Positions 13,184-44,821 of a stretch of 64,000 bases of DNA are shown here, in pieces. The stretch spans positions 16,184,001 through 16,248,000 of the forward strand of contig CM097885.1 of assembly GCA_044892525.1 (NCBI GenBank), read 5' to 3'. The translations under genes were made by a program, and so were the position numbers. The notes beneath the pieces were generated by a model. The model had not been told where the DNA came from. It worked only from the letters and a program-made list of their open reading frames with translations, and ran no database searches. This DNA is from Schmidtea polychroa (taxonomy: Eukaryota). How positions within the stretch are numbered: position 1 is the first letter of the stretch; each line of letters starts with the position of its first letter.

Positions 13184-13200
13184 TATCTCCCCCCTTAAAA
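13184..13200 (-). promoter_or_regulatory. polypurine tract of element D
   Basis: Minus strand reads TTTTAAGGGGGGAGATA then TGTTG. Confidence 0.85.
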
Positions 13201-23352: not shown

Positions 23353-24904
23353 TTATAGTCTTGTTTCATAATATGAATATGATGGTGGTTGAAGGATAGT
23401 TAGTTGTCTCTCTTTTACACATATCAAGATGGTGATGGTTATGAATGTTATTGATAAGATGAGAAAACCTGTTATCAAAATGTAAATGAGATATTCACAA
23501 TAGTTGACTGTCAAGTCCGAATTTGTCATCATTAGTTTATTTAAGTTAGGTTTTGTCGTCTCTTGGGTTGGCAATTGGAAAGGTGATGTGGTTGTATATG
23601 ATTTTCGTTTCGATTCATTGATTGTCTTGACTTCCACGAAAACTGTTTGCCATCTGCCTGGTTCGGTTATCCATCGCTGATATTTAACTGTTAATTCCCA
23701 TGCCGTCTCTAAATCAGAAGTGTAAAGTGTAAAAAAATGATTACCGGCATCTAATATAGTCAGGGTTTTTTGTTTGTAGATAATAACGACTCTTTCATCA
23801 TTTCCTGATTTTCAATATATCGTTACCGGTCCATTTCCAACACTCAGGGTTATACGATTTGACTCGTCTCTGAGATAGATAGACTGGGTCTCACTCTTAA
23901 ATCGTGACCATTGGTTTCTCAATACCGTTCCATTTTCGAGGCATATGTTCTCGTAGTAGTTTGCATTAATTGAATAACTTTGATTCATTTTCAATTTTTC
24001 ATAGCGGACAAATGATTTTTGCGTGTTAAGGGTGTCGACATTTAACCCTTGAAATGTGATTCGCACTTTCACCAAGTCCACTGGCTTCCAATATATATTG
24101 ATTCCATTTATCTCTGTTTCTATTTCGATCAAGTTTCGCATTTATTTTGTGTGCACTTCTATCGGAATTTGCGTGTACCACTTTGACATGTTCTGTCTCA
24201 ACAGCCATTGGTATTTGAAATTTGGCTTTAACTTTCGTACAGCAAATATATCTTTATCATAATTCAGTTCTACCACTGGTGCCATATTGTCTAGTAAATT
24301 AATAATCTCTATTTGGTCTGCGATCTCGCATTTACAGCTCCACACAATATTTGTTAGAGTGGAATATATATGTATTTTCTCCATTCCTTGGATTTTGTTT
24401 ACCGCATATGGCAAGTCAATCCTTTTGCCGCTCGCGACTGTTACAAACATCAGCATTATTGCTACATATAATATCTTATTGATGTAGCTGACTGGTGTTG
24501 GATTTTTCGTGAATTTCTGTTTCAATTTTGTTTGACCCGTTACTTTATTCTGCTTGGATCTTAAGGGGTATCTAGATTCATCTTCCTCTGGCACTAATTT
24601 ACATCGATTTGCATGCACAATCATCGGGTTAGCCTTTTTACTCCTGAATGGTAATAACTTCAAATTGGTTTTGGTGGTGTCGCACACTTTGTAGGGTCCT
24701 TTAAATGGTCTTTGCAATTTAGGCGATAAACCTTTGAGAGGTTCCGGTCTGTTAAGATATACTAGATCTCCAATCTTTATGCCATGCGCATGTGCTTTTT
24801 TATCGTAGGTTTCTTTATATTTCTCCTGGTTGTGCTTTATTGTCAAACCGGCTTTAGTCCATACTGACTGCATTTTTTCTTGCATCATTGCTTTATAATC
24901 GGGT
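23353..24904 (-). pseudogene. integrase C-terminus (GPY/F) of element D continuing in frame into a signal peptide, ectodomain and TM segment
   Basis: IKIGDLVYL...KLQRPFKGPYKV, then ILYVAIMLMFVTVASG. ORFs 24142-24960, 23812-24141 and 23353-23637 share one frame. TM YLIYILITGFLILSITFITITILICV; tail PPSYSYYETRL. Confidence 0.75.
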
Positions 24905-24910
24905 ATCTCC

Positions 24911-25217
24911 AGTAGTGTGTATCTATCCCTAACGACCACAAGCCTCCCAACTGTTTTCATGTTTTATACCTATTTTTTCCCGTTTTATACCTATTTTTCC
25001 CTCATAAACGTAAAAAAAAACACTTAAAACCTTAAAAACCTATATCTTTTAATTTCTTTATTCCGAAGACATTTTGCTTTCAAAATAAAAACTTAAAAAA
25101 CAACAAAAATATTAAAAAAACAACACAAAATGTTAATAAAACAGGGAAAAAAAATACTGATAAAACTATGAAAAACGTTTGTCGGCTTGCGGTCGTTAGG
25201 GATAGATACACACTACT
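24911..25217. repeat. left TIR of C, itself bounded by inverted repeats
   Basis: AGTAGTGTGTATCTATCCCTAACGACC...GGTCGTTAGGGATAGATACACACTACT. Confidence 0.93.
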
Positions 25218-25220
25218 TGC

Positions 25221-25370
25221 AGGTCGCCAGTTTATCAAGTCGCCAGTTTATCAAGTCGCCAGTTTATCAAGTCGATAGTTTGTCAAGTCGATGATGCAAT
25301 CGCTGCGGTCTTGGCAAGTCGACAGCTTGGTAAGTCGACAGCTTGGCAGGTCGATAGCTTGGCAAGCTGC
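25221..25370. repeat. 16-bp tandem repeats (AAGTCGCCAGTTTATC and variants) upstream of pPolB
   Basis: About 8 degenerate units visible. Confidence 0.85.
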
Positions 25371-25526
25371 TAGAATATAAATATAAAAAAAATAAAAAAA
25401 AAATAAAAATAAAAATAAAAAAATAAAAAAAATAAAAATAAAAAAAAATAAAAATAAAAATAAAAATAAATATATAAAAATTTAAAATTTAAAAACAACG
25501 TATCCAGTAAAAAATTTTTTCTAAAA

Positions 25527-28500
25527 ATGAATTGTAATATTTGCAATAAAGTTTTTAAAAATAAAACAGGATTAATTTCTCACTATAAATCGAAAGCTCA
25601 CTTACTAAAAGAAAATAATCTTAATGACACAAATTCAAAAGTTTGTACTAAATGTAAAGGAAGATTTCTACATTCTGGATATAATAAACATTTTGAAAAT
25701 TGTATCGGGAAAAATAGAGAAATATTTACATGTCCTCATTGTAACTTTTCAACAAAACTAAATTTCTATTATTTAAGACATTTAAAAGAATGTAAAAATA
25801 AAAAACAAAGTTCTGACGTTGAAGAATGTCATTCAGAAGGAGAACCTGATCATGTTGAAAGAGAAAAATACAACTGGGATGATTTTAATCATATAGATGA
25901 ATTTCAATTAAAAATTAATGGACCTGCAACCCCTGGAGAATATATAAGGAGAAATAAAAAAAATAATAAAAATTCTTTCACTGAAGCTTTAAAAAATTAT
26001 AAACCAACAAGGTATAATGTTATAAAATATAAAATTACAATCAAAGCAAAATATTGGAGAGGACCAGAAGAAAAGACAACTCCTTTAGATGTTGAAATTG
26101 GAATACCTTTTAAATATTTATTTTCAACTAGAGGATTTAATAAAAGCATCAAAGAAATAATTCAAGCAGTAGAAGCAAAACAAGAATAGGTTGAAAATGA
26201 ATTAGGAGATTCAAACTTAGTATTCAACTCTTTCCAAACTTTAGTGATTGATTATTGGAGAGGATTACCACCTAATCCTAAATCTTATATTCAAACACCC
26301 TTTAGATCTAGGGTTGTTATAAATGTACAGAATAAGGATAACAAATGTTTCATGTGGTCAATACTTGCACATTTACATCCTCAAGAATCAAACCCTCAAA
26401 GAGTTTCAAAATACAAACAATATGAAAATGAATTAATATTTCCCAAGGGATTCACACACCCAATGAAACTAGAAGACATTCCAGAATTTGAAAAACTAAA
26501 TAATCTTAAACTTAATATTTATGAACATGTTAAAGGATGGGGACATAGAAGGAAAGATATTATTCCAATTTATATTTCTGATAGTGATAGCACGAGGGAG
26601 ATATATCTTTTAATCTTGGAAGAAGAAAATAATCAACATTTTATTTTAATAAAAAACTTTCAAGCTTTTACATCACCAGAGAATCCAACTTGTGGAGGAG
26701 GAACATGTAAAAGATGTCTTCATTATTCAACAACTAAAAACTCTATGATTAAACATACAAGAATTTGTGAAAAAGATGATCCAGCTTTAATTAGAATGCC
26801 TAATAACCCCAAGATGCATTTTAAAAACTTTTCAAATTTATTACAAACATTAGGAGTTGTCTATGGAGACTTTGAATGTATAAATCGCGAACAAGATATA
26901 ATTATACAATATTTAAAAATAATAGAAAAATATAAACTCATGGATGAATGGAAAGCCTCTAAACAGAAGGAGAAACCAACAAGGATGAAAGCCTTTCTAA
27001 GAAAAAAGAATAAACCCAATAGTATCAAACAAGCTAAACAATTACCATCTGCTTATAAACTATTATTTAAAAGTAATTATCCTGAACTCATAAAATCTAG
27101 AGAATATTCATTTAGAGGAACTTCTTCAGAAGAGGTTCTAGATCACTTTACTAAAAGTATAAATAGCTTAGAACACGAAATATTTAAAGTATAAAAACAA
27201 GCTATCCTCAAAATATTTCAGAACAACAACAGGAAGAATATGAAAACGCTTCAAATTGTTGGATGTGTAAACAACCCTTTGAGGAACTCTCTCTCTCTCT
27301 GAAAGTCATTCTGATATTAGATCTCTAACTATTGACCAAATAGAAGCAGAAGAAACAAGATTATTTCATGAAGGACAAGATAATGCAAAAGTTATAGATC
27401 ATGATCATTTAAAAAGTGAAAATAATTATCGAGGAGCAGCTCATAGAAATTGCAATCTTAATTGTCATACTCCCAAATTTGTACCTGTTATATTTCATAA
27501 TCTTTTTGGTTATGACATACATCTATTTATTAAACATTTAGCAGCAAATGCTAAAAACTCTTTCAAAGTTATCGGCTTAACAAAGGAAAAATATAAATCA
27601 GTAGAATATGGAAAATTAAAATTTATAGACTCGTTAAGCTTTCTCCAAATGTCTTTAGATGCAGTGGCAAAAACAATGAAACCAGAATATTTTAAAATCA
27701 CTCGAGAATTCTTGGAAAAAAATAATATTCCTCTAGAAGAATATCCTACATGTTTAGCAAAAGGAATATATCCATATGATTATATGAATTCATTTGAAAG
27801 ATATAATGAAACAAGTCTTCCTAACCAAGAAACATTCTTTTCACAACTTCAACAATATCATATTACAGATCAAGAATATTCTCGAGCAAATAAAATGTGG
27901 GAATTATTTGACTGTAAAACTTTAGGAGAATATACTGACATGTACCTATCCTTGGATGTTTATATTCTAGCAGATTGCTTTGAAGAATTTACAAACTCTT
28001 TTGTTCTTAAACCCTACAATTATATAACAGCACCCTCTTTAGCTTGGGATACTTTATTATATACCATTTGGACTTCAGATCTTCCAGAATCTGATAAAAT
28101 TATAGATCTTTTAACCGACCAAGATATGTTTAATCAAATTAAAGCAAACATTAGAGGAGGACTCTCTTCAGTAATGGGTAATCGAGAAATAAAAGCTAGA
28201 AATGCAATAACTACTAGTAGAATACTTTCTAAACATCCTGAGGCACATATACAACTTAATAGTGAGGAACTAAAAGAAGTATTAGAAGGAATGAAAAATC
28301 CTCTATTTATACTTTATATAGATGCAACAGCTTTATATTCAGGAATTATGACTCAATATTTACCAATGGGTGATTTCATTGAGATGGAACCAACAGACGA
28401 TCTTATAAAAGAAATACTTTCAACCCCGAAAGATTCTCCAATAGGATACTTTGTAGAATGTGACCTTGACTATCCTGATGATATAAAATCAGGAACAAGA

Positions 28501-29560
28501 CATTTCCCTTTAGCTCCTATAAGAAGAAAGATTGATATCAACGAACTTTCTGAATGGCAAATCTCACAAGATAAACCTCCAACAATGAAACTTCTTTACT
28601 GCAGTAGAACTAAAGAATTATGAGAAAACATATAATAAACCAATATTTATTGGCTTTGCAATTTTAGAACTTTCAAAATTACAAATGTATGAAACATATT
28701 ATAACATCTTACAACCTATATATGGATCGAATATAGCAATGCATGCAATGGATACAGATTCAATGTTTTTAACAATAAGAACTCACGATTTACAAAGTGA
28801 TATCTCTGAAAATCCTATACTTTCAAATTTAATAAATTCATCTGGAGAATTATTTTCGTTTAAAGATGAAAAACCTTTTACTCCTATAGAAAATGGAATA
28901 TTTATTCGTGCTAAACAATATTCATATGAAACATTTACAAATCCTAAATTTGAAGAACATACATTTATATTTAAAACCCCAGAAACAGAAGAAAGCATTA
29001 CACATAGATATCCTATATTCCCTAAAGGACATGACGGACAGGGAGAAAAACCTGTAAAGGATAACAGATGTAAAGGAATTCAGAGATGTGTAGCAAAGAA
29101 TCTTTCTCATCAAGATTATATAGATACATTGAATCCAAATCATAAAGATAAAATTGATGAAATACATCAACTTAAAAGTGAAAAGCATGATATTTACTTG
29201 ATAGAATCCCAAAAAGTATCATTATCAAATTATGATGACAAAAGATTCATACTAAGTGATTTAAAGACAACTCTTCCTATAGGAAATAATTTAATACCGA
29301 TAATAAAAAATCTTGATAGATTGAATCAGTTATATGGTACAAAGATTACTGATCTTGATATTTATAATGTTGAAATCATTTATCCTGAGAGAATTGAGAA
29401 ACCTTTATATTCTCAAGTTTTTAATCCTATATGTTTAGAACTTAAATATTTTAATACTGATCCTGAATATATAAAAGGTCTAAGTGATAAAGAATTTAAA
29501 GATCATAAAGAGGTTCTAAAAACTAATTTCGAAAAGTTAACATCAGATTCTATCAAATGA
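25527..29560 (+). pseudogene. protein-primed family B DNA polymerase (N-terminal zinc fingers, endonuclease VII-like insert), inactivated
   Basis: VINVQNKDNKCFMWSILA, ExoI YGDFEC, DHDH...RGAAHRNCNL, FHNLFGYD, KGIYPYDYM, IRGGLS, motif A YIDATALY, motif C MDTDS, KVSLSNYDDKRFI. Stops at 26187 and 27192, frameshift near the (CT)n at 27290, and a deletion near 28610 that removes motif B. Confidence 0.95.
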
Positions 29561-29634
29561 TTTTTTTCTTTTAAAAATGTCAACAATTAATTTAAGAGTG
29601 ACAACATCAACCTTTTGAAGGGCAATAAATTTTT

Positions 29635-30256
29635 TTATGTATGATTCTTTAGCCACTTCTCTCGTTTAATTTTGTTAGAATATTCATTAGTTATAACATT
29701 AGCACTTTTTAATCTATTAATATTATTTTTAATATCTTGTATTATTTGATTTGATTTCATTATTTCATCATCAGTTAAGATTCCATCTTCCAAAGCTTTT
29801 AATTGAAATAAAAATAATTTAGAGATTCTTAATTCTATTGATAAACAAACTTCACGATATAAACTTTTCTTTTTAGAAGTATAAGATAATGAAACTATTT
29901 CAGTCAAGAAACCATCAGCTACAGAAATACTTCCAAGTATTACAGGTGCTATTGTTAAAACTGGTAAAGTTATAGGTAAAATAACTGTTAATATTGCAGA
30001 TGTAAATCCTAAAGAATAAGCTATAATTTTTAAAACTGTATTCCCTTTATTCCATCTATTTTTAACCTTTTTATAATGCTTTAATAAATCTTGTAAATGT
30101 AAGGTTTCTGATTTAAATTCTTTTACTCTCATAATTTCAAGTTCTGTGGGAGCCGAGGCCTTGGAAGAATAATATCCTGATGATCTCAATTCTGGAGGGA
30201 GCTCTGGATAAATTTTTTTCTTCTCTTACTTCTTCCATCTTTTGGACTTTGTCCAT
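29635..30256 (-). CDS. Polinton membrane protein (GasderminX-like); probable frameshift in the A-run near 30215
   Basis: Hydrophobic hairpin IIAYSLGFTSAILTVILPITLPVLTIAPVILG and C-terminal KALEDGILTDDE; IYPELP and ASAP in frame upstream; ATG at 30256 is in another frame. Confidence 0.6.
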
Positions 30257-30264
30257 TTTAATAA

Positions 30265-31275
30265 TTAAAAAAATAAGACTTTATTCTTCTGAGCACCATC
30301 TGTCACCAATACTCGGATATCAAAAGAAACTCTTGTTGAGAGGATATCTTTATACAATTCTCTCAATGCTTTACGAACTTCATCAACATCAACCTTTTTT
30401 TCATAAAATATTAAACCTATATATTGTACAAGTGTGCTTTTAAAAATAATATTCTTACTTTTAACTTTATGTAGTCCATGTGAATGAGTATTAACATACC
30501 AATCTCCGTGTGGTAAATCATAACTAGTCATTATAACATCACCCTTTTCAAGCTTACTATTATAATCACATTTCACAAACCATTTCATTCTTTCATTATC
30601 ATCATCAAACAAAAAGAAATAAGGATCAATAATCTTTACAACCATAAAAACACCCCATTCTTTACTGTTTGTTGTTATTAAACTTGGTTCTATAAAATGT
30701 TTATATGTATGGGGTAATAATGTTTTATTCTGTTCTAATTCAGCAGCTCTTTTTCTAATACTATGTGTGGTGTTAATGTGTGTTCCATGAGACTCTAAAT
30801 TTGAAATTCTTTTATTAAATGATGTAATCATCTCATTTATTATATTATATATTGTATTAAATTTAGTATTCATAATTTGTTTATCTTTAGAATTTAATAT
30901 GCTAGTATTTAACTTTACAACTTGTTCAGTTAACAGACTTTGTAACTTGTCAAATTTATCATTAAATCGTTGTTCGATATTATTAAGCTTTGATTCCATT
31001 GAATCCATTTTTGTTGTTAATGAACTTTCAATTCTTGTTGTTGTTAAATCAGTATATTTTTTAACACCATCAACATATTTTTTATTAACTGCATCAGCTT
31101 CATCAGTTGGAAAAGATAATTCTTTTATCTTGTGTCCATTTAAAATTAAATCACCCTTCATTGAATCACCTCTTTCATTAATATATTTATTTTCTGTTAA
31201 AGTTAATATTTCTTCTGTATTAAACCCTGTTTTTATTGTTCCACCACCTCTATTACATGGAATATAAGAACTCAT
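30265..31275 (-). CDS. fibre/spike-like protein with coiled coil
   Basis: GDSMKGDLILNGHKIKEL..PTDEADAVNKKYVD tail-fibre-type motif, long heptad region, position next to the penton gene. Confidence 0.6.
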   Translation of the reverse strand: MSSYIPCNRGGGTIKTGFNTEEILTLTENKYINERGDSMKGDLILNGHKIKELSFPTDEADAVNKKYVDGVKKYTDLTTTRIESSLTTKMDSMESKLNNIEQRFNDKFDKLQSLLTEQVVKLNTSILNSKDKQIMNTKFNTIYNIINEMITSFNKRISNLESHGTHINTTHSIRKRAAELEQNKTLLPHTYKHFIEPSLITTNSKEWGVFMVVKIIDPYFFLFDDDNERMKWFVKCDYNSKLEKGDVIMTSYDLPHGDWYVNTHSHGLHKVKSKNIIFKSTLVQYIGLIFYEKKVDVDEVRKALRELYKDILSTRVSFDIRVLVTDGAQKNKVLFF

Positions 31276-31299
31276 TTATTAATAATTTAAAATGAATCT

Positions 31300-32058
31300 T
31301 CAAACCTGTTTCAAATGTAAATACATTGAAATCTCGTCTCCATTAAAATCAATCAATTCTCCTTCTTGATTAAGAATTTTAAAATTAATATCCATTATAT
31401 ATTTTCTACATAAAGGTAAATAATTTGGAGGATTCATTCTTTCAACTATTTTATATCCCATAGGAACTGTGTTTGAGGGAAAGGAATATAAAACATTTGT
31501 TTGTTTACCATTATTATAAGAACCTGTTATACAATCACAATGAATATTTATTGTGTTTGTATTTATTATTTTTATAATATGTTCTGATGTTATAATAGAT
31601 TCTTTCTCAACTTTAGGTATGTTATAATGACTCTGTGTAAATCCTAAAATTGTTCTAAAGAAACTATTATTTTGAAACCTAATTCCTATATTCTTTAAAG
31701 TCATTATACATTTTGAAGTTGGTAAATCCATTTTAATTTTAATGATTCCATTTGTTTTTTTAGAAAGTATATTATTTAAATCTTTTATCTCATAAGCCCC
31801 GGGTTCTATTATTATTATAATGTTATCCTCGAATTTTGGGGGGCTTACATAACTAAATGTGTTATTATCTTTAGTTATATTAAAAATAGTATTATAAGCA
31901 CAAAACCATAATAGACCTAATTCATAATTTAAATTTTGATCTAATTTTATTGAATCTTGAAAGTTTATAGTAAAGTCTGATTCTTTTGAATTTATAGATA
32001 AAGTTCTTGAATATTTATCTGACATTATGTTTACCATTTTTTTTAAATTATCTTCCAT
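31300..32058 (-). CDS. minor capsid protein (penton, single jelly roll)
   Basis: NTIFNITKDNNTF, IEPGAYEIKDLN, INIHCDCITGSY, YLPL, NQEGELIDFNGDEISMYLHLK, typical of Polinton minor capsid proteins. Confidence 0.85.
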   Translation of the reverse strand: MEDNLKKMVNIMSDKYSRTLSINSKESDFTINFQDSIKLDQNLNYELGLLWFCAYNTIFNITKDNNTFSYVSPPKFEDNIIIIIEPGAYEIKDLNNILSKKTNGIIKIKMDLPTSKCIMTLKNIGIRFQNNSFFRTILGFTQSHYNIPKVEKESIITSEHIIKIINTNTINIHCDCITGSYNNGKQTNVLYSFPSNTVPMGYKIVERMNPPNYLPLCRKYIMDINFKILNQEGELIDFNGDEISMYLHLKQV

Positions 32059-32061
32059 TTC

Positions 32062-32496
32062 TTATAGTAGAGATTTTAAATCATTATAAATTTCTTGGAT
32101 TAAGGAAGTGAAACCTTCTCCTTTGAATTTATTCAATCTATACAAAACATATAAGCTTATAATACCACATATTTTAGTATTATTAGGTTGAACTTGTAAA
32201 GAATTAAAAGTATAGTCCTTCGACAGATAGTCTTCAACTTCTTTAGTAGGTTTAATCCCAAAAGAATCAAAGTATATAGATTTATTATATATAAAAACCC
32301 AATGAGATCCTTTTTCATTTGAATTTTGATAATTTATAATGATATTCTTTGGAGTGTCTTCTTTCAGACTCGACAATTCATCATTCATTAATATTTTTAT
32401 TTTTAAATTTAAATAATCTGCATAATCTTTTAAATCAAAATTTGTTTTTGTATTTATTCCAAATGTTTTTAAAAAATCTAATATTGAAGGAGTCAT
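32062..32496 (-). CDS. adenain-like cysteine maturation protease
   Basis: GSHWV, YFDSFG, QVQPNNTKICG. Confidence 0.92.
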   Translation of the reverse strand: MTPSILDFLKTFGINTKTNFDLKDYADYLNLKIKILMNDELSSLKEDTPKNIIINYQNSNEKGSHWVFIYNKSIYFDSFGIKPTKEVEDYLSKDYTFNSLQVQPNNTKICGIISLYVLYRLNKFKGEGFTSLIQEIYNDLKSLL

Positions 32497-32518
32497 TTTA
32501 TATTTTATAACTTCGTAT

Positions 32519-33316
32519 TTATAACTTCGTATATTTATTAAATTTATCTTTTGAAATTATTCCTTGTTTTAATAATTCTTTAGAAATCTTTAAAATATCA
32601 GAATCTAAATTATTATGTCCTGCTTTTTTAGCTGCTAATAGTTTTCTTAATTCAATAAAAAGATTGATTGGGTTTATCTCCTTACCCTTTCCCTGGCCCT
32701 GACCCTGGCCCTCTCCTTCTGTGACAATATAACCCCTTTCATTTTTATTTAAATATTTCTTTAAATCTTGAATATGTTTTGCTTTAGCACTACCATGTAC
32801 TAATTCTATTAAATTTAAATATTTTTTAATTTCTAGAAGATCAACATTCTCTGAGGGATATCCACAAACTAATCCATAAAAATCATCTGTAAATTCAAAA
32901 TCTAGGTGTTTAGTATTATAAACATTTTGTGAATGAATACGTGATTTATTTTCTGAATTTAAATATAACAGAAAGTCATGTTTATTAATTGTTATTATTT
33001 GATATCCTTCAACATTAATATTAAATGTAGGTTTAATTGTTTTACTTAAACTCACATTAATTTTAGGATCAAGTATAAGAGGTTTTATATTTAAATCTTC
33101 CAACCATGGTAATTCTTTTAAATCTTGTTTACCTTCCAACTCTTTAAATTTTAAAACTTCTAACTCTTTTATGGCTTTAATTGTTGGTCCTTGTTGTTGT
33201 TGGATTACCTCATTTAATATTATAGATTCAGCGTGTTGAGTTGTATCTTTTTTATTATATTTATCTTGTTCTGATTGTAATTTTTTTAAAAGTGCTAATC
33301 TTTCTTCATATACCAT
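32519..33316 (-). CDS. conserved Polinton/adintovirus hypothetical protein
   Basis: Open 265 aa; the C-terminal LRKLLAAKKAGHN...ELLKQGII motif is recurrent in Polinton core genes. Confidence 0.65.
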   Translation of the reverse strand: MVYEERLALLKKLQSEQDKYNKKDTTQHAESIILNEVIQQQQGPTIKAIKELEVLKFKELEGKQDLKELPWLEDLNIKPLILDPKINVSLSKTIKPTFNINVEGYQIITINKHDFLLYLNSENKSRIHSQNVYNTKHLDFEFTDDFYGLVCGYPSENVDLLEIKKYLNLIELVHGSAKAKHIQDLKKYLNKNERGYIVTEGEGQGQGQGKGKEINPINLFIELRKLLAAKKAGHNNLDSDILKISKELLKQGIISKDKFNKYTKL

Positions 33317-33338
33317 TTTAATGGTATTAAAAATGGTA

Positions 33339-33854
33339 TCATTTTGGTAAAGGATCCGTTGGAAAGGGTTTCAAGTATAAACCTTTACCATTTTTAATTT
33401 TACAAAGACATCCATTTTTTAAAGATTTACATATTTTTTTTAAATTATCTTTATCTTTTGAAGATAAAGATTCAGATGTAGAAATTTGATTTTTTAAAAA
33501 ATCATTTAAACCACGACCTTTATAAGGATCAAGATAAAGACCTTTCCCTCCCTTCATTTTCTCGATTTCAGTTTGTAGTTTTTCTTTTTCTAGGTCTGTC
33601 TTTTGAGATTCTTTAGCTTTTTGAACTGTAGTTGCAATTCCTCCAGCTATTCCAGCAGCACCTGATAGTCCGGCAATGATTGCAGGTATTAAAGCAGCTA
33701 ATGGAAGAATACCTCCGGATTTGGAGGAACTCCCTATATGTTCTTTAACTTGTTCTTTTACATGTTTTCCAATAAAATATTTCTTACCATCAATTACAAC
33801 TGATTTATTTTTATTTGAATTTATTAATTCTTGTAAAGATTCTTCAGTTGTCAT
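33339..33854 (-). CDS. core protein with an adenovirus pX/mu-like segment
   Basis: SGGILPLAALIPAIIAGLSGAAGIAGGIA resembles pX RGGILPLLIPLIAAAIGAVPGIA; repeated GKGLYL motifs. Confidence 0.7.
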   Translation of the reverse strand: MTTEESLQELINSNKNKSVVIDGKKYFIGKHVKEQVKEHIGSSSKSGGILPLAALIPAIIAGLSGAAGIAGGIATTVQKAKESQKTDLEKEKLQTEIEKMKGGKGLYLDPYKGRGLNDFLKNQISTSESLSSKDKDNLKKICKSLKNGCLCKIKNGKGLYLKPFPTDPLPK

Positions 33855-33870
33855 TTTATAATAAATAAAA

Positions 33871-34650
33871 ATGGATACTTGGAAACCAATTTTAAATAGA
33901 CATAAATCTAAATTTAATAATAAAGTATTTCCTGATAATTTTAGATGCTTAATTATTGGATCTTCTGGATGTGGAAAAAATGTTCTTCTTATGAGAATGT
34001 TATTAGAAGATGGTTTTTTGGATTATAATAATTTAATCTTTTATTCTACAACCATTAACCAACCGGAATTACAACTTTTGAAATGTGGATTTGAAAATAA
34101 ATTAACTAAAAAAGCTATAATTGATATTTTTAAAAATCAACATACATATCCCGAAGAGGTTTTTCATCCTTGTGATATGGTTGATTGGTACAAGGAAAAG
34201 ATTTTAGAATCAGATATTAGTAATAAAAATGATTATATAGGGGATGGAATCCAGATCTTATTCTCTAATAAACCTGAAGATGTTTTACATTGTGATTTAC
34301 TTCCTAAAGATAAAAAGAATCTAGTTATATTTGATGATGTTGTTAACATGAAAAATCAAGAGATTCAAAAGAGTTACTTTACACGAGGTAGACATAATAA
34401 TTGTAATGTTATTTATATATCTCAAACATATTATGCTTTAGATAAAAACTCTATAAGAAATAATTCTAATTGTTTTATATTTTTTAAATTAGACAAGCGT
34501 GATAAGAATATGATTTATAATGATTTATTTTCAAATGTTGAACCTGATAAGAATATCTTTGATATGTTTGTTGATAATCATTGGAAAGAAAAATATAATT
34601 ATATTTATTTGGATAGAGAAGAAGCTGAAATATGGAAAAGTTTGTTTTAG
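33871..34650 (+). CDS. A32/FtsK-like packaging ATPase
   Basis: IIGSSGCGKN, LVIFDD, TRGRHNNCNVIYISQTYY, IRNNSN. Confidence 0.93.
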   Translation: MDTWKPILNRHKSKFNNKVFPDNFRCLIIGSSGCGKNVLLMRMLLEDGFLDYNNLIFYSTTINQPELQLLKCGFENKLTKKAIIDIFKNQHTYPEEVFHPCDMVDWYKEKILESDISNKNDYIGDGIQILFSNKPEDVLHCDLLPKDKKNLVIFDDVVNMKNQEIQKSYFTRGRHNNCNVIYISQTYYALDKNSIRNNSNCFIFFKLDKRDKNMIYNDLFSNVEPDKNIFDMFVDNHWKEKYNYIYLDREEAEIWKSLF

Positions 34651-34661
34651 GGCTTGTCGAC

Positions 34662-36056
34662 TTAAAAATCTGTTTTCTGTAGTTCATTATTATAAAATCT
34701 ACCTAATATTTTTTCATTATTTAAATCGATGATACCATATGTTATTGGAGTTGTATGATGTATTTTATTTATAATAAAAATTTCATTTGTCCATTTTGCT
34801 GTGAATCCTTTTTCAAATTTATTTTTATATTTAAATATTCTTACGCGGTCACCAATTTTAAATTTTGGTTTTATAGGGGTTGTATCAACAATAACATCAT
34901 TTTCAATATTTACCACTTTAACTGTTTCAGGATTCAAGGAAGCATTTAAAGGTGTTGATTTTATAGAACTATGTACATCATTATTATATTCATTTACAAT
35001 CTTTTGTAACAATTCATTGTTCCATTTTTGTTTTCCAATAGCAGTAAAATATTTCCACATTTTATTTTTTAATGTTCTATTTAATCTTTCAACCACAACT
35101 GCTTTTCCTTCGTTTTCTGTTGAATATAATTTAATATCATTTTCATTTAAAAACTTTGTAAAAACTTTGTTATAAAATTCTGTTCCTTTATCACACCATA
35201 AATATTTTGGAATTCTTTGATATTCTTCAAATATATTTTCAAATGCTTCTGTAATTGAATATCCTGTTTTATTTTCTAAACACCTTGCAAAAGCAAATCT
35301 TGTATATAAATCTATTACTGTTAAAATTATTTTATATTTTTCAGGGTCTGATGATTTGGGCATAAAGACTAAATCAGCAGACCATGTTTGATCTTTTTCA
35401 TGTACTTGAACTTTTAAATATTTTTTATTTTTTCTAAATTCATGGTGTAATTCGTTGGCATATTTTATTTCTGATTCTGTTGGGGTTTGTAAGGGTTTAT
35501 TCTCAAAGAGTTGATTCTCAAGGGATCTTTCAACGTCTGCTTGTTCAATAATCCTTTTATTAGCAACATCTTTTGCTTTTCTAGGAAGTCCTGCTCCTAT
35601 GAAAATCTTACCTTTCATGGCTAATTTAACTAGAGCTCTTTGAATCTTTTCCTTGCTTGATGGATTTTGGATACTATTTAAATCATGTATTAAATTCACA
35701 TCAGCAACATGTCTATCTCTAAGATCTTCTGAGTTGTATGCAATATCATGTTTTAAAGCTGCTTGATCAATTCTATTTATTGGTTCTTCTCCTTGTTTAG
35801 GATTATTATTTTCATCTAATCTAATATCTAATCTTGTTCCTGGTCCAGTATAGTTGTGATGGAATAAATGTCTTTCACCTGGATATTTTTCAGTAGTAAA
35901 GGGTTTTAATAATGTTGATGTTGTTTTTAAAGATTGAAGATCACCTCCGGCTGCTAGTTTAGATCCAAGTATATGTTTTTTAGTTTTAACATGAGAGGCT
36001 TTGTGATGTCTTGTAACTTGACAATGACAAGTTTCACATGTCCAATATTTACTCAT
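34662..36056 (-). CDS. zinc finger - parvovirus-type PLA2 - rve integrase fusion
   Basis: Likely start MSKYWTCETC; NYTGPGT, DQAALKHDIAY, RHVAD; WSADL, CDKGTEFYN, VERLNRTLK; C-terminal PKFKIGDRVRI...GRFYNNEL; one open frame. Confidence 0.92.
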   Translation of the reverse strand: MSKYWTCETCHCQVTRHHKASHVKTKKHILGSKLAAGGDLQSLKTTSTLLKPFTTEKYPGERHLFHHNYTGPGTRLDIRLDENNNPKQGEEPINRIDQAALKHDIAYNSEDLRDRHVADVNLIHDLNSIQNPSSKEKIQRALVKLAMKGKIFIGAGLPRKAKDVANKRIIEQADVERSLENQLFENKPLQTPTESEIKYANELHHEFRKNKKYLKVQVHEKDQTWSADLVFMPKSSDPEKYKIILTVIDLYTRFAFARCLENKTGYSITEAFENIFEEYQRIPKYLWCDKGTEFYNKVFTKFLNENDIKLYSTENEGKAVVVERLNRTLKNKMWKYFTAIGKQKWNNELLQKIVNEYNNDVHSSIKSTPLNASLNPETVKVVNIENDVIVDTTPIKPKFKIGDRVRIFKYKNKFEKGFTAKWTNEIFIINKIHHTTPITYGIIDLNNEKILGRFYNNELQKTDF

Positions 36057-36069
36057 TTTAAAAAGTTTT

Positions 36070-37368
36070 TTATGAAGAAGAATCACCTCGTACATTTTCA
36101 ATAATTGAAATCTTTCCACCATATAATTTCATTTCTATTTTCTTTTCTTCTAATATTAATGTATATACTTTAGCTTTAAAATTAGAATCCTTTGTTATAT
36201 GAAGTGTAACATCAACATTATTTATGGCTAGGCGATCATCTTGGTCTGAAACATTTATACAAAATATAGAATATAAATTTTTGAAATCTTCTAAACTTAA
36301 TTGCGGTTCAACTTTGAAATCATAACATGTTTCAATATAATTTAGATATGGGAATATGTTTTCATTATTTTCAATATTAAATTCCATTCTATTTATTGGA
36401 TAATAAGAACTATTTAATTGAATTTGGATTGTTTTTAAATTATCATCTCCAATCTTTTGAATAAACAAGTTGTTATTTTTTTGAAATGATGGATCTGTTT
36501 CTTTGAATCCAATCAAGATATATCTTGGTCGGTATGCTAAATTTGCTACCTTTATAGAATATGTTGAACCCTCTGTCATACTAAATTCACTACAGATTCG
36601 ATTTAAATAATTTACATTTATAGATTTGTTGGAATTTAATCTTTCAAGGAGTTTGATTTCAGAATGTGGATTTAATGTCCATTCAGGTATATGCAATTCA
36701 AGTGTTGATAATTTTAATTTAGCTTTTGTATCTGCAGCTCCATAGAACAATCTTTTATCACCTTCTAGTCTATTACAGATGAGTTCTATAAAAACATTAT
36801 GGAGCACCCGGTTATAGTTTTGAAGGAATCCGAACAAGTGTTTTAATTCAAAATAACCTTCAAATTTTTTCAACTTATAAAGTTCAACTCTTTTATAGTA
36901 AGCATAATTTATATCTAAACCATCTTTATCTAAATCCCCTTTATTAACATCAGGAATCCAACCTGTTAATTCACCATATTCGTTTTTATAATCACAACCA
37001 GTTAAAATAAAATTTAACATTGTAGAATATACTCCTGGATGCAAAACAGTTTCAATTTCTGATGATCCTAGTTTTAATCTCATGTTGGAGAATAAATTTG
37101 GAAAGAAATTATTTTCTAGGGTTATATCTTTGTTTGCTTCAATTTCTAATTCAATTTTATAATATAATTTGGCATTACAAATATCTATTGGGTTTGATGT
37201 TTGAAGAGATTGAAAAACTATATCACCCCTACGATTTAAGTTTGCAATAGATCCTGAAGTTAGCGAGATTTTTAAAATATCATTTTTCTTGATTTCATGA
37301 GTAAATTCTTTATTATAATCAAGATTTAATTTATTTTTTTCTTGAATTTTAAGATTTATATTATTCAT
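36070..37368 (-). CDS. major capsid protein (double jelly roll)
   Basis: 432 aa; FPNLFSNMRLKLGSSEIE, LKHLFGFLQNY, RPRYILIGF, LNSSYYP, YSIFCINVS; genomic context. Confidence 0.88.
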   Translation of the reverse strand: MNNINLKIQEKNKLNLDYNKEFTHEIKKNDILKISLTSGSIANLNRRGDIVFQSLQTSNPIDICNAKLYYKIELEIEANKDITLENNFFPNLFSNMRLKLGSSEIETVLHPGVYSTMLNFILTGCDYKNEYGELTGWIPDVNKGDLDKDGLDINYAYYKRVELYKLKKFEGYFELKHLFGFLQNYNRVLHNVFIELICNRLEGDKRLFYGAADTKAKLKLSTLELHIPEWTLNPHSEIKLLERLNSNKSINVNYLNRICSEFSMTEGSTYSIKVANLAYRPRYILIGFKETDPSFQKNNNLFIQKIGDDNLKTIQIQLNSSYYPINRMEFNIENNENIFPYLNYIETCYDFKVEPQLSLEDFKNLYSIFCINVSDQDDRLAINNVDVTLHITKDSNFKAKVYTLILEEKKIEMKLYGGKISIIENVRGDSSS

Positions 37369-37403
37369 TTTTATAATAAAAATTTAAAAAATGATAAAAA
37401 TCC

Positions 37404-37488
37404 GAACTCCGATAGCGAAGTGGGCTAGACTGGCACAGTGGTTCAAATGGATAGCGGTTCAAATCCTAACTACGGTTAGTTTTTTTTT
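37404..37488 (+). ncRNA. putative Pol III small RNA gene, copy 1 (tRNA-derived)
   Basis: A box TAGCGAAGTGG (37413), B box GGTTCAAATCC (37456), hairpin CTAAC-TACG-GTTAG, then T9. Confidence 0.6.
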
Positions 37489-37636
37489 AACATAAAATAA
37501 TATTAAAAATTTGAAAATAATATTGAAAATGGTGTGGGTATCTTAGATTTATATTTTATTTTATTTATTTTTATTTTATTTTATTTATTTTATTTTTTTT
37601 TTTATTAATTAAAAATTTAAAAAATGACAAAAATCC

Positions 37637-37735
37637 GAACTCCGATAGCGCAGTGGGAATAGACTGGCACAGTGGTTCAAATGCTAGCGGTTCAAATGCT
37701 AGCGGTTCAAATCACGTCTGAGGTTAGTTTTTTTT
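37637..37735 (+). ncRNA. putative Pol III small RNA gene, copy 2 (tRNA-Trp-like ends)
   Basis: A box TAGCGCAGTGG (37646), three GGTTCAAAT boxes, 3' GTTCAAATCACGTCTGAGGTTA, then T8. Confidence 0.6.
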
Positions 37736-38374
37736 CAACATAAAATAATATTAAAAATTTGAAAATAATATTGAAAATAATTTTTGAAAATAAATATTAA
37801 AAAAATATATAGTGTGGGTATCTTAGGAAATAAATCTTGTTTATTTTATTTATTTATTTATTAATTAATTAATTTTTAAACATAAATATGAAAAAAAAAA
37901 TATTGAAACGGGTGATGGTGGCGAACCGGTAATTATCGCCACCAGTCTTTCGAACACCCCCGGATCGATTCTATAATGTGCACATTTATTTCTTGGTTGT
38001 TTTCGGACCTCTTTCGGATTCGCTTTCGAATTCATTTGTACTTTCGAGCAGCACACTTAAAACGCCGATGAAATCGACTTCGTGAGCGAGAAGCGAATAA
38101 TAAAGTGTGCTGCTATTATCGAATTGATTCTGATATGTAAGTCTGGCCAGCTTGTATATTGGAAGAGATTTGATAAACGAAAGAGGTTAAAATAAAAAAA
38201 AAAAAAAATGATCCGGATCAAAAAAAACTGTTGAGAGGACAGTGAAAAAAAAAAAAAAATACCACTGTCCTCTCAGAGCAGTTTTACTATTTTCATAAAA
38301 TTTTTTATTCTTCAAGATTAAGATTTATAAAATTATAAATTAGTCAAATAGCAACTTGCTAGTTGACATCCTCA

Positions 38375-38659
38375 AGTAGTGTGTTTATATCCCTAACGAC
38401 CGCAAGCCGACAAACGTTTTTCATAGTTTTATCAGTATTTTTTTCCCCGTTTTATTAATATTTTTGTTGTTTTTTTAATATTTTTGTTGTTTTTTTTAAG
38501 TCTTTATTTTGAAACCAAAATGTCTTCAGAATAAAGAAATTAAAAGATATAGGTTTTTAGGGGTTTTAAGTGTTTTTTTTACGTTAATGGGGGAAAAATA
38601 GGTATAAAACATGAAAACAGTGGGAGGCTTGTGGTCGTCAGGGATATAAACACACTACT
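38375..38659. repeat. right TIR of C, itself bounded by inverted repeats
   Basis: AGTAGTGTGTTTATATCCCTAACGACC...GGTCGTCAGGGATATAAACACACTACT. Confidence 0.93.
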
Positions 38660-38665
38660 ATCTCC

Positions 38666-41600
38666 ATATATTGTGAAATTGGTGGTTGGAATTTGAGATC
38701 AATCGGCATATTATTTTTCCTTAACCCTGCAGAGCGCGAGCTAAAAAAGTAATGATTGTTGTAAAGACTGTTGTCTAAAATTATAATGATTTAATAATGT
38801 ATTAATGATTTTGGTCGAAATTAAAGTAAAGCTGAAATGAATCAGGTACAGAATGTTCTGAATTGATGCTACGCCTCAAAAAATGTTTTACGCAAAATAG
38901 ATCGTCTGGGTCTGTGAGACCCAACGCGCCCTCTGGAGGGTTAAATACATCAAGTAAAAAAGGGTCTCACCTGTACTTGGGTTTACTGCATTTCTGTAGG
39001 CAAATAGACACGGCTTTATGAAGTCGTTCCAATCTTTCTGTTTCCGGTTCACATATGATGAGATCATATTTATCAGTGTCCCATTAAATCGTTCCACTAA
39101 TCCATCAGTTTGTGGATGGTATGGTGACGTATTCAATTTCCAAATTCCAAATAGGTCTGTGATTGATTTGAACATCTCGCTTTGAAAGTTCTTTCCTTGA
39201 TCAGTTAACAATTTCTTTGGAGTGTCATAGCGAAATATTATGTTTTCCACAAATATTCTAGCAATCGTGTCTGCTTTTGGTTTGGAATAGCGTATGCTTC
39301 TGGCCATTTAGTAAAATAGTCGCAAAAAACAACAATGTATTTGTTTCCTTTTTGTTGTTTCCTGTAATGGTCCCAGAATATCCATTGCCGTCATCTACAT
39401 CGGTGCTGCGGGTACTGGCATCGGTTTTAATGGTACTTTAATCTTTTTACCAGTATTTCTGTGGGTGATGCATACTTTGCAACTGTTACACCAATTTTTC
39501 CTGTCTTGTTCCATTGTTGGCCAAAAGTATTTCAATTTTAATCTTGATAGCGTCTTGCGCATTGACAAATGACCTCCCAACGCTCCTTCATGATACTGCA
39601 TCAGTAAAGCGTCTCTGTGCTTGGCTGGTATAATAATTAATGCTTCCCCATTTTTCCAACATTTAAGTATTCCATTATGAATTACATATTTGCTGTTTGC
39701 ATCTGTGAGTCGTTTCCAGTCTTGTTCTTTTCTTATTTTGACCGCTTGTTCCATAAATTGTTTTAATTCACTATCGTTTTCCTGATCATTTTGAAGTTCA
39801 GACATATCATTAACAGCTTTGATTGCAGCGAATATAATGCCTTCCAATTTTTCAGGTGTCCCTTCACTATCATTTTCTGGGATTCTTGACATTGCATCTG
39901 CATTCGCGTTAGCTTTACCTGCCCGATATTTAATCTCAAAGTCGTATTCTAGCAGGGCAATCGACCATCGTATTAACTTCCTGGCTGAATCTCTGTGTTT
40001 CATTAACCACTGTAATGGATTATGATCTGTATAAACAGTTAATTTTCTGCCCAATTAATATTGTCTAAAAGTAGTAATTCCATATACTAACGCTAACGTT
40101 TCCTTTTCAATAGTTGAGTAGTTTTTCTCGTGAGGTCTCAATGATCTGCTTGCATATGCTATTACGTGGTCCTTTTCACCTTCAAAGTTTTGTCCCAACA
40201 CCGCACCCAATGCAACGTTGCTTGCATCCGTCATCAAGATAAATTGTTTTGTAAAATCTGGACATCTTAATATAGGAGTTGTTACTAATTTCTTTTTTAA
40301 TGTATTGAAAGCGTTTTGTTGCATTTGTCCCCAAATAAATTTATTGTTTTTCTTTAGTAACGTATTCAATGGTTGTGCGATATGAGAGAAATCTTTTATA
40401 AATTTTTTGTAATAGCTAGCCAAACCTAAAAATTGCCTAACCTCATCAGCATCTTTTGTTACTGGGTACTCTTCCATTTTTTTGATGTTATCTGGATTAG
40501 TTTGTAACCCTCGCCGTGATATTATATATGTCCGACATAAATCACTTCTGCTTTGCCCCATTCACATTTCGATGGTTTGATTTTTAATTTTGCACTTTTG
40601 AGCCGTTTAAATACAGTTTCTACATCTTTCAGGTGTTCTTCAAAATCATTTGAAAATATTATTATATCGTCGATATACACCAATGCATGTCGAATACCTC
40701 GTAACACATAATTCATTCCTCGTTGGAATGTAGCTGGGGCTCCTGTTAATCCAAATGGTAACACATTGAACTCATATAGTCCTTTGCCATCCGTAAACGC
40801 CGTCTTCCCTCTATCTTCCTCTTTTACTCTAAATTGATTGTACCCTTTGTTTAAATCAATAACTGTGAAATATCGTGCCTCTCCCATTTGATCGAACATT
40901 TCTTGGGATACCGGAATTGGATAAGTGTCTTTCCTCGTAACTTGATTTAGCTTCCGATAATCTACGCAAAATCGTAAGTCTCCATCTTTTTTCTTAACTA
41001 TCACTATTGATGAGGAGAATGGTGACGCACTATCTCGAATTATTCCAAATTCCTTCATTGCTGTAATCTGTCTATCACTTTCATCTTGATGAACGTAGGG
41101 GATTCTGTATGGCTTTATTTTTATTGGAGTTTCGTCTAATAACGGTATTTCATGCTTAATTACATTGGTTAAACCCAAATCATATTCGTGTTTGGCAAAG
41201 ATATCTCGGTATTTTCTCAACAGTTTTGTGAATTCCTTTTTCTGTATCTCATTTAAATCATTGCTTACCACTTCAGGCTCCTTATACACCTTGACGTTTC
41301 TTGGTATTTTACAATTTGTTTCAATAGACATTTTTGATAATTTTCCCAATTTTGTTTTTGGTGTAACTGAACCGGTTTCTTACTGCTGTTCGTTATATGG
41401 GCTGGTACTATCTGATTTTCCACTTTGACAATTTCTTCACATATCGGTAGATCATATTTTTCGACTAGCGTTTGATTTGGTTCGAATATAAAATCACCAT
41501 TATCCACACTCATGGTATTTGCACAATATACCATGTCCGATTGTGGTGGTATTGTCAATGTCTGATTCACAAACACCTCACCTGTGAATTATTTCTCCTG

Positions 41601-41925
41601 TTTCTCCTGCTATCAAATTACCTGTCTTTAAATCAAGTGAGACTCCGTCCAGCTGCTCTAATATATCCATGCCGATCAGACATCGTACTGGACTTCCTTT
41701 CATTATGAGCGCATCGTGCGCTATTATTCGATCTCCAATATGGAATATGACGTTAAGTTGTCCAATTATGTTTAACTCATTTTTTGATAATGACCTCACG
41801 ATTTCGTCGGTAGGCTTTATTCGCATTTTCTCCTTCGCGTTTAATACATTTTCCGATATTATTGTGTGACTAGATCCCGAATCGACTAAAGCTTCCACTT
41901 TATGTTTGTTCATTTGTATAAATAT
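38666..41925 (-). pseudogene. pol of element D (protease, RT, RNase H, integrase core)
   Basis: ALVDSGS; LRFCVDYRKLN, LPFGLTGAPATFQR, YIDDII; TDAS, YASRSL, NYSTIEKE, YTDH; HHCC, TDQGKNF, YHPQTDGLVERFN; several stops and frameshifts. Confidence 0.95.
38725..38940. mobile_element. piggyBac-type MITE (216 bp) inside the Gypsy integrase
   Basis: TTAA TSD on both sides, CCCT(G/C)CAGAG termini; removal restores FYLMYL-RKNNMPIDLKF. Confidence 0.9.
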
Positions 41926-43240
41926 TCAGGGTTGCTTTCCTCTTTTTGTTAATGTCATCATTGAGTAGTTGCATGGTAAGCCTAACATATTTTTTCTCTC
42001 GATCTCTGCGCTAGAAGGCTCGATTCTCTCTTCTACCATTCTTTCACATTGTAATGCGATATTTTCCACTGGTTTCATCTCTCGTAACCGATCAACTGGA
42101 TACACTGGTGCTGGTTGCATAAATGATTTTGGTATACACAATTTTGTAAACGTGTCTACGCTACTCGCATTCAACAGTGGTTCTTTTAAGATTTGATAGG
42201 TTCTTAACGCTTCTTTATTCATTCCACTTAGTTCTTGATTGTCAACATATAACGGTGCACTATCACCTTCGTTGTCATTGTCATTATTCTCGTCCCTTGA
42301 AGGGGTAGTAATAGCGTAGCTCACCTTTTTCTTCTTTAATATTCGCGCCTTGAGTATCTTCAATTCCTGATATTGATGATGAGTAATGAAGAATCTAGCC
42401 AATAATGGTATGCAACCAATTACTAGTTTCCACGACCAACCTGTGATCGCGTATAGCCTGTGTGTTGACAGGACCTGCGATATTATTACTTTGATTACAA
42501 CACATATTACATAAATTCCAATCAATCCGGCACACGCTTGTCCGATGAACATAAACTTTCGCCAGATCTTTTTCATTGTATTATACGTTGCTTTCTTGTA
42601 ATGATCTGGAGTTAACAAATACTCGTAATTTACCTTCCCACTTCCGCTTGGGAGAATTGTATCTACCATTTCCATTATTACTCTTTATTTCTTTGATAGA
42701 AATAGCAAGTTTCTGCGAGCTTCCTCAATGTCTTCGCTCGAGTAAATTCCACTTTGCGACAATCTTTCTAACGACGTAAAATTTACCAGATATTGTAATT
42801 CTGTCAATTCTAAGTTTTCCGGTGTCTTTACTTCTCGATGATCTGGTAATGAGATCCAAGATTCTGGTGTTAGTCTGTATAATGGTGCCAACAATCTATT
42901 ACACTGTAATACTTTCGGTTTCACGTCCTCTTCCAGTAAGATTCGTGTTACAGGCTCCATAAATCGCAACTTTCCATTTAAATTTACTGGTAACTCGTTG
43001 GTACATTGGTCGTACTTTGTCAGTTTGACTGGTACCGCTTTACATTTATAGCTATATAGTGCTTCACCGAAAATTCTGGCAAACACCCCATTTTCTGTAA
43101 TTAACATTGGTGCTACTAAGTTAGGATTGGTTATAGCCATTGCCATCCGATTTCGGAGTATTTCTTTGTTGAGATTGCAATCATTTATAATAACTTCTCG
43201 GTACACATTTTCAACGGTATTTTGACCAAAGTGAAATGGC
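41926..43240 (-). pseudogene. C-terminal half of a chuvirus-like (class III-type) envelope glycoprotein, in frame between gag and protease
   Basis: GEALYSYKC..VPV, CTNELPV, FMEPVTRIL, GIYSSEDIE..R..LLF, and WRKFMFIGQACAGLIGIYVI TM; same frame as gag and protease. Confidence 0.7.
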
Positions 43241-43713
43241 TTGGCCATATCTGCTTGGACTGGTTTGACTTCAAAGGCTTTATCTGCTAAATTGGTCAGA
43301 TGATAAGCAAACTCACTGACCGATTCATCTGGACCTTGAACTCGATTATAAAACTTCTGTCGCATGATTCTTTTGATATCTCCACCAACCAGTTTCAGTG
43401 CCATTGCATCCTTCAATTTGGTCCAATCATTGCTGACATTCCGTTTGTCGACTTGCTGTCAGGCTTCTCTTGCCGCACCCTTCAGATAGAGTGGGAATCT
43501 CTGAACCATAATGGCTTGTGTCCATCCGTATGCTGAAGCATACATATAATAATCTCCCATGAAATCTGCAAATTCAACAAGGTCTCCTCCATATTGATTG
43601 ACGGGTAATTTCTGACAACTTGCGAAATCAATCATCTCTCTATTGAGAGGCATAACAGCATTATCATTTGCCATTTGGACTTGTTTCTGACTTCTGAGGT
43701 TGTATCGGTTCAC
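43241..43713 (-). pseudogene. gag N-terminal (capsid) region of element D
   Basis: RYNLRS, PLYLKGAAREA*, RVQGPDESVSEFAYHLTNLADKAF (retrotransposon gag motif). Confidence 0.8.
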
Positions 43714-43925: not shown

Positions 43926-43943
43926 ATCACGTCGGGCTCACCA
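43926..43943 (-). promoter_or_regulatory. primer-binding site complementary to tRNA-Trp
   Basis: TGGTGAGCCCGACGTGAT versus the animal tRNA-Trp 3' end ATCACGTCGGGGTCACCA (one mismatch); 7 nt from the LTR. Confidence 0.85.
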
Positions 43944-43950: not shown

Positions 43951-44821
43951 TGTTGGGTTTTAGATTAATTCAAGTAGGTTCTCTCTGACTCCTAGTGTTC
44001 TTTAAATCAAAACAATGAACGACCCAACGTATATTGAAACAACAGGTTCACAATTTATTATCACCACTTTACAATTACTAATCGAAGTTTTACACGATTC
44101 TCCGCTCGGCGTTTATGCTTTGCAAACAAATAATATTCACCTTTTAGTCCTTTAGATTCTCTTGACTCACGTTTTCCTCGGTTTCTGTTTGGTTTGATTT
44201 CTTTTCACCTTTCCGTATACTTAATTCTATTTCTTCTTTTCCCTACTTTCCCAAATTCATTTACCAACTTTTCCTACGCTCTGATTCTTCGAACCCTAGC
44301 TAAGGCAAAATGCCGATTTTCTCTGATTTTCCCTTTGCTTATATACTCCTCGAAATCAGGATGACAAATGGTTATTGCCGAGCAAATCTTTCGTTTGACA
44401 TTTGCTCCTACGTATTTGCTTCGGCTGTCACCCATAATGGTCCAACGAATCCAGATAATTAATGGCCCTACCGGTCTTCCTACGCGCGCTATCTTCTCCT
44501 TACTCTTTTCCCATTAATCATTGTGTCAAGCTAATGGGCCCAAATCTTCATTCTGTTTGCTTTTCTTCTTGTTTACCCAGCTCGGGTTTCCTTTATCTCT
44601 CGGGTTCTCCATTGGCTCGGGTTTCCCATTAGCCAATTAATTAATTAATTAACGTTTTCTGTTTTCATACATTTGAATGTTTTTCGACCCTTCCTAACCA
44701 TTTTCTGATAAATCCCTAACCATCATCTTGTTGACCATTAGCTAATCTATACCTGTCCCGTTTTTCCCATTCGATTTCGATGATTTTTCCATTTATTGAT
44801 TTTTCTCGGATTTCCGGATTC
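43951..44821 (-). repeat. 5' LTR of element D, outer ~175 bp missing
   Basis: Colinear with 12125-13008, with scattered substitutions and two small indels. Confidence 0.92.

Follow-up and report, generated by a model that had tools for sequence, protein, structure and literature searches.

The minus strand of a 64,000-nucleotide stretch of contig CM097885.1 of Schmidtea polychroa (here called the window, with positions counted from its first letter) carries the remains of a Ty3/gypsy retrotransposon in which a chuvirus-type glycoprotein lies between gag and pol. In our assessment the element is quite probably a defunct genomic copy belonging to a known group, the GAG-ENV-POL Ty3/gypsy elements, with a polyprotein that would deliver two envelope proteins, the glycoprotein ahead of the protease and a second membrane protein behind the integrase. 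The original prediction had proposed, from this stretch, a Gypsy lineage whose genes follow the order gag-env-pol and whose env is a glycoprotein of chuvirus type; this lineage is borne out by the single reading frame in the window, a longer copy in sequencing run X13, intact relatives and a Ty3-like reverse transcriptase (RT). That the lineage is enveloped, as was also proposed, is suggested by the sequence.

Between 43719 and 41578 the minus strand forms one frame, and its translation meets stops ahead of the protease only at 43459-43461, 42685-42687 and 41926-41928. Read through with X at the stops, the frame gives Pfam matches in the order gag (Retrotrans_gag, E 8.7e-7), fusion glycoprotein (Monjiviricetes_fusion PF24664, E 2.1e-56, profile positions 324-627 of 653) and protease (gag-asp_proteas, E 4.6e-8). 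The gag (43239..43674, with the stop at 43459-43461) comprises the N-terminal capsid part only and is 40% identical to the start of the open reading frame (ORF) at the metagenome locus L002 (E 6e-26). It is followed by a fusion protein of the chuvirus/herpes-gB type (class III; 42289..43237, with the stop at 42685-42687), of which only the C-terminal half remains in this copy. This half is cysteine-patterned, carries a membrane anchor and is 47% identical to the relatives P0002 and L003. A cytoplasmic linker of about 120 residues (41926..42288), which terminates in the stop at 41926-41928 and is open in P0002, P0005, P0007, L002 and L003, leads to an aspartic protease (41581..41925; PF13975, E 1.6e-9). 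Thus the predicted succession of gag, cysteine-patterned ectodomain and protease in one frame broken by point stops holds. Of the transmembrane segments claimed with it, hydropathy recovers one clearly (42537-42481), and a second hydrophobic stretch stays below threshold.

A lack of glycoprotein similarity had been named as the result that would speak against the prediction, and the strong match to PF24664 leaves it standing. The comparison with gB that had been suggested points the same way: in the PDB the family profile retrieved herpesvirus gB alone (31/31 matches at E<=10), each of them weakly (best E 0.025). A profile of the whole polyprotein retrieved proteases only, among the 60 PDB matches listed. 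The glycoprotein does lie within 41926..43713, where it had been placed, and the element reaches much farther along the minus strand, at least to 23353.

The junction between gag and glycoprotein, suspected from the outset of being an internal deletion near 43240, is confirmed as such by other copies. Four of 24 listed sequencing runs (X1, X2, X9 and X13) were compared with positions 38661-44830. An X13 contig of 9,098 letters is collinear with the window over 38661-43815, from gag to integrase, at about 97% identity, and between 43237 and 43239 it holds 3,616 letters that the window lacks; X1, X2 and X9 show loose ends at 43237. Since the collinear X13 copy holds these extra letters at 43238, the window copy must have undergone an in-frame deletion of about 3.6 kb (junction 43237..43239, minus strand), whose net length is a multiple of three. 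The deleted part comprised the remainder of gag, a spacer, the signal peptide and the first half of the glycoprotein, and the matching interval measures 730-1,370 residues in P0011, L002, P0002 and L003. Among the differences listed, the run contigs depart from the window at the glycoprotein-internal stop and at the pol frameshifts.

The abruptness of this junction and the heavy rearrangement of the window copy might suggest that the glycoprotein is a late insertion between gag and protease, or a recombination scar, peculiar to this copy. We give this virtually no probability, as it is refuted by the X13 contig, a collinear longer copy, and by intact relatives, in which the order is preserved at 26-48% identity; moreover, depth across the glycoprotein part is similar in magnitude to that across pol in 4/4 runs, and the order has been published (PMC13524379). 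Copies lacking the glycoprotein segment had been the second kind of result held to count against the prediction; the X13 copy carries the segment, and the claim stands.

The relatives show the arrangement in undamaged form. P0002 (2,099 aa) is one ORF composed of gag, spacer, signal segment, full glycoprotein and two proteases. At the metagenome loci L002 and L003, a single ORF of 3,184 and 3,703 codons, respectively, extends from gag past the integrase, in the order gag, signal peptide, class III glycoprotein, anchor, protease(s), RT, RNase H, integrase and a second set of signal, ectodomain and anchor. L001 resembles them but is cut at its start, and L004 and L005 are short fragments. Glycoprotein and protease share one ORF in 11/14 proteins scanned, which were taken from the 150 best representatives, and 5 of those 11 extend into RT; glycoprotein followed by protease in one ORF was also seen in P0002, L001, L002 and L003. 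The signal peptide that had been expected after gag was found, together with a full glycoprotein ectodomain, in P0002, P0005, P0007 and L001-L003; both are deleted in the window copy. A tree was built from the part of the glycoprotein that survives in the window, with 30 of 60 stand-alone rows kept and hits shorter than 240 columns left out; in it, the window groups with all 19 polyprotein-embedded sequences against the 30 stand-alone ones (support 98/93). A metagenome scan with a single glycoprotein was negative for all 164 stretches, and a scan of viral contigs for all 25.

Several peculiarities of these relatives deserve mention. Protease domains are multiplied in P0002, P0005, P0010 and P0155; P0155 has up to seven protease-matched stretches, and some protease domains of the clade follow the integrase. 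P0006 shows a weak Bcl-2 match just ahead of the glycoprotein. P0007 is filed under a Flavobacteriaceae metagenome-assembled genome, probably as animal DNA in the bin.

The pol region of the window copy (38660..41580, minus strand) encodes RT, RNase H and the zinc finger and core of the integrase, with several frameshifts and one stop. Pfam recognised RVT_1 (2.4e-34), RT_RNaseH_2 (2.7e-33) and Integrase_H2C2 (3.9e-18), and the best PDB match of the RT is Ty3 RT (E 3e-49). The PR-RT-RH-IN order is thus present with a Ty3-like RT. A BEL/Pao backbone of the Anakin kind was rejected, since RT and protease match the Ty3/gypsy type in Pfam and PDB.

Of the 5′ LTR, only the 3′ part is left (43951..44821, minus strand), with 850/865 aligned bases identical to a copy at 12127-13008. 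Its upstream part has been replaced by a fragment of another element, and in X1, X9 and X13 loose ends at 44821 continue like the other LTR copy. An 18-mer resembling a primer-binding site (43926..43943, minus strand) starts with TGG, 7 nt beyond the LTR end. The second LTR copy (13184-12127, within a minus-strand feature at 12127..13197) lies after a polypurine tract and is 98% identical to the partial 5′ LTR. It is probably the 3′ LTR of the element, from whose 3′ region near 21240 it is separated by about 8 kb of unrelated repeats. Troyka, as far as characterised in the text of PMC12440569, was set aside because the LTR copy in the window starts with TG. Directly upstream of the 5′ LTR (45205-47391, minus strand) lies a remnant of a different element from this clade, with a gag piece, two copies of the gag-env spacer domain and a 467-nt internal duplication. 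At a distance, the plus strand at 1588-3033 holds pieces of a TRAF-like gene (RING, zinc finger, MATH) that are not separated by any long intron.

Two insertions disrupt the integrase gene. The first, of 220 nt with TTAA ends (38721..38940), is not present in the copies of X1, X9 and X13, which show the joint 38720-38941. The second is a Polinton/Maverick (24911..38659) with 312-nt inverted ends and an identical 6-bp duplication on both sides, and it contains genes for a jelly-roll capsid, an integrase and an A32 ATPase. This Polinton is near-complete in its own right, with a perfect target duplication, a phospholipase A2-like domain in its integrase and probable pieces of a polymerase. Because its two ends share one 6-bp duplication, the DNA from 24910 downwards belongs to the same Gypsy element. 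Across the Polinton the frame resumes with the C-terminal domain of the integrase (24493..24910, minus strand), whose identity to the corresponding integrase part of P0005, P0007 and L001-L003 is 43-54%. Owing to its stops, frameshifts, deletion and insertions, the window copy has no uninterrupted ORFs of the kind by which intact copies are recognised in PMC13524379; it is a decayed, dead copy and not an intact member of the GAG-ENV-POL gB-type errantiviruses.

Immediately behind the integrase, and in frame with it, the window encodes a putative second membrane protein (23353..24492, minus strand), interrupted by stops at 24142-24144 and 23812-23814. It begins with a signal-peptide-like segment (24492-24436), through which L001 aligns up to 24427. 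Behind it come about 310 residues of ectodomain and stalk, in which four glycosylation sequons occur, and then a membrane anchor (23481-23425) with a short tail. With this extension the element measures 9,968 nt. Seven of the eight relatives that reach the end of the integrase (P0005, P0007, P0063, P0155, L001, L002 and L003) show a signal segment and an ectodomain at this place, with a clear anchor in six of the seven, P0155 having been judged by eye. The eighth, P0156, a cluster-mate of P0155 available as protein sequence only, stops near the integrase C-terminus and has no extension. The relatives with a post-integrase protein are not all independent, but they are distributed over five or more separate branches of that tree of glycoproteins. 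As the X13 contig reaches only about 420 letters beyond the Polinton site and ends short of the ectodomain, no second copy of the window's own family was seen with this part.

Some further features of the region were noted. The tail of the second protein contains a PPxY motif (23365-23385, minus strand), a budding signal in other viruses, which is not conserved in the relatives read. A Y-x-L-R motif occurs before the gag start (43700, minus strand) and once more immediately ahead of the second signal segment (24570, minus strand), where most relatives have it as well; it is reminiscent of the nucleosome-binding motif of foamy viruses. L001 possesses a third signal-ectodomain-anchor unit between two protease domains (4754-5320), detected by a profile of the other repeats (E 1.2e-7), and in P0155 a short pair of signal and anchor occupies a comparable position.

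The nature of the second ectodomain is best seen in L003, where it is built of repeats. The model of repeat 2, predicted from a five-row alignment, has seven strands (pLDDT 79), its best match is a fibronectin type III (FN3) domain (Z 10.5, rmsd 2.7, 86 residues), and nearly all of the best 50 matches listed are FN3. The repeat alignment likewise retrieved FN3 proteins from the PDB (6/6, best E 0.18). Language-model features point to FN3 for P0007 (0.91) and P0005 (0.89), weakly so by the tool's own caveat. A single-sequence model of the P0007 ectodomain reached a pLDDT of 35, and Foldseek against viral models returned no match at E<=0.001. Thus, structure prediction establishes the FN3 fold for one relative, in the L003 repeat, whereas for the second protein of the window it is position and topology, read from the sequence, that are established and not the fold.

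Four sequence tests on the window ectodomain were all non-significant: a profile HMM gave E 0.25 against the repeats of the relatives (0.046 in one of five leave-out runs), BLAST found no match to them at E<=1, hhalign scored no better than with shuffled sequences, and the one FN3-like motif, chosen after looking, is also given by 279/5,000 shuffles. Near-length homologues of the post-integrase region numbered 0 among 2,180 candidates, and Pfam had no match to the ectodomain. These results would fit a slot that has been refilled repeatedly by unrelated membrane proteins, so that the window protein shares with the FN3 proteins of the relatives only position and topology. We regard this as rather unlikely. 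The tests are weak because the relatives' repeats barely find each other: a profile missed two of five held-out elements and placed a third level with noise. Furthermore, the length of the window ectodomain corresponds to about three repeats, and the motif sits at the expected place. Nonetheless, the ectodomains of L002 and P0063 have no FN3-like motif, so the post-integrase proteins may be of several origins. A search for near-length homologues of the P0007 region recovered only P0007 itself among 3,237 candidates.

Elements of this kind are known. Chary and Hayashi (eLife 2026, PMC13524379) describe gB-type errantiviruses of Nematoda, Bryozoa and Platyhelminthes arranged GAG-ENV-POL and list nine flatworm elements, six of them from Schmidtea mediterranea. 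The gag-env-pol order, contrasted in the original prediction with the normal place of env 3′ of pol, had therefore already been published for HSV/gB-type Ty3/gypsy elements, and the window element is a further, decayed member. Chuvirus-type glycoproteins, described in the original prediction as known mainly from Bel/Pao, are not confined to that group, as the same paper reports the chuvirus-like glycoprotein of BEL/Pao elements also beside gypsy pol. As far as described there, the 'C1a' elements of S. mediterranea resemble the window element in Ty3/gypsy pol, a gB/chuvirus-type env between gag and pol, LTRs and many copies. By eye, P0002, P0004, P0005 and P0010 share domain I-II motifs with the S. 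mediterranea entries, whereas the window copy lacks domains I-II.

Other systems are similar in part. PMC13524379 credits nematode env-before-pol elements to Sacco et al. 2022 (doi 10.1099/jgv.0.001739); according to its citing sentences, these non-canonical nematode endogenous retroviruses share with our element the Gypsy (metavirus) affiliation and an env before pol. The Anakin elements (Dezordi et al. 2020, PMC7642597; 2023, PMC10084718) carry the same glycoprotein family on an LTR retroelement, but as described in these papers they have a BEL/Pao backbone and occur in insects, in contrast to the Ty3-like RT of the window. LTR elements of bdelloid rotifers (Rodriguez et al. 2017, PMC5408684) are described as carrying small transmembrane ORFs downstream of pol, together with DEDD exonucleases. 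Exonuclease ORFs of the latter type follow the polyprotein in L001 (10617-12104) and L003 (12085-13470) as well; none was found in the window. In the rotifer elements ORF3 is separate and, in the text of that paper, there is no gB-type env before pol and no match to 'fibronectin' or 'in-frame'.

A second membrane protein after the integrase was not found in the literature searched. The text of PMC13524379 has no match to 'polyprotein', 'fused', 'single ORF' or 'fibronectin' and does not mention a second post-integrase membrane protein, and its structural supplement has no match to 'fibronectin'; its figures and sequence files, like the Sacco paper, may show such a protein. Two of the Schmidtea elements in PMC13524379 would be about 8.8 kb long on the assumption that the published spans include 3 kb of flank on either side. 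As this equals the length of the window element without the extension, some flatworm members may lack the extension or have it unannotated. To judge from the sequences at hand, it is plausible that an element whose one polyprotein ends, behind the integrase, in a second and receptor-like membrane protein constitutes an undescribed variant.

How such a polyprotein might work can be proposed from its layout. One long ORF has an internal signal segment and an anchor on either side of the Pol enzymes. Flavivirus and alphavirus polyproteins are threaded through membranes, and by analogy, and from the way membrane proteins are ordinarily made, the present one may be threaded through that of the endoplasmic reticulum. 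Gag would stay cytosolic, and the first signal would send the glycoprotein into the lumen. The anchor of the glycoprotein would then bring the chain back to the cytosol, where the Pol enzymes could fold, and the second signal would send the last ectodomain into the lumen. Pol would thereby be tethered at both ends until freed by the protease of the element. Such threading would work only if the chain crosses the membrane an odd number of times behind the glycoprotein; one such span is indicated by hydropathy in the window and in most relatives. By this route Gag, Pol and the two surface proteins could be made together at one membrane or budding site. The window copy has lost its 3.6 kb in frame and has acquired the stops, the frameshifts, a MITE and the Polinton.

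The second protein may assist the gB-type fusogen by attaching to cells or binding a receptor, with particles passing between host cells, a role by analogy to which we assign a probability close to even, though short of it. We favour it because herpes gB needs partner glycoproteins and the entry route of gB-type errantiviruses is called unknown (PMC13524379). A complex prediction for the glycoprotein and FN3 ectodomains of L003, made without alignments, scored zero and bears neither way.

The post-integrase protein might also be unrelated to entry and be a captured accessory of receptor-like kind that serves as an immune or cytokine-receptor decoy, or act only as a membrane tether by which Pol is packaged, an explanation we hold to be less probable than not by a clear step but worth weighing. 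Its ectodomains diverge far faster than the glycoprotein (22% identity between L001 and L003, none to the window), and FN3 domains are typical of cytokine receptors. In addition, the clade collects other cargo, such as the exonuclease ORFs of L001 and L003, ankyrin and zinc-finger domains in P0155 and the third signal-ectodomain-anchor unit of L001. However, unlike this other cargo, the second protein has kept position and topology in the five or more branches in which it occurs, and fast change would equally be expected of a receptor-binding protein.

Returning to the attachment role, we tentatively extend it to a Gypsy clade whose virions bear two envelope proteins cut from one multi-spanning polyprotein, a gB-type fusogen and a fast-evolving FN3 attachment protein; this fuller version has appreciably less than an even chance of being correct. 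Entry divided between a fusion and an attachment protein is known from herpes- and paramyxoviruses. For annotation, the arrangement means that a terminal membrane protein can be overlooked when 'pol' is described by its enzyme domains. For the gB-type errantiviruses, a conserved second surface protein in the same polyprotein would be a concrete candidate for the missing entry partner left open in PMC13524379. If this is true, these elements would represent retroelements with a divided entry system in the style of herpes- and paramyxoviruses and a membrane-threaded polyprotein like that of flaviviruses.
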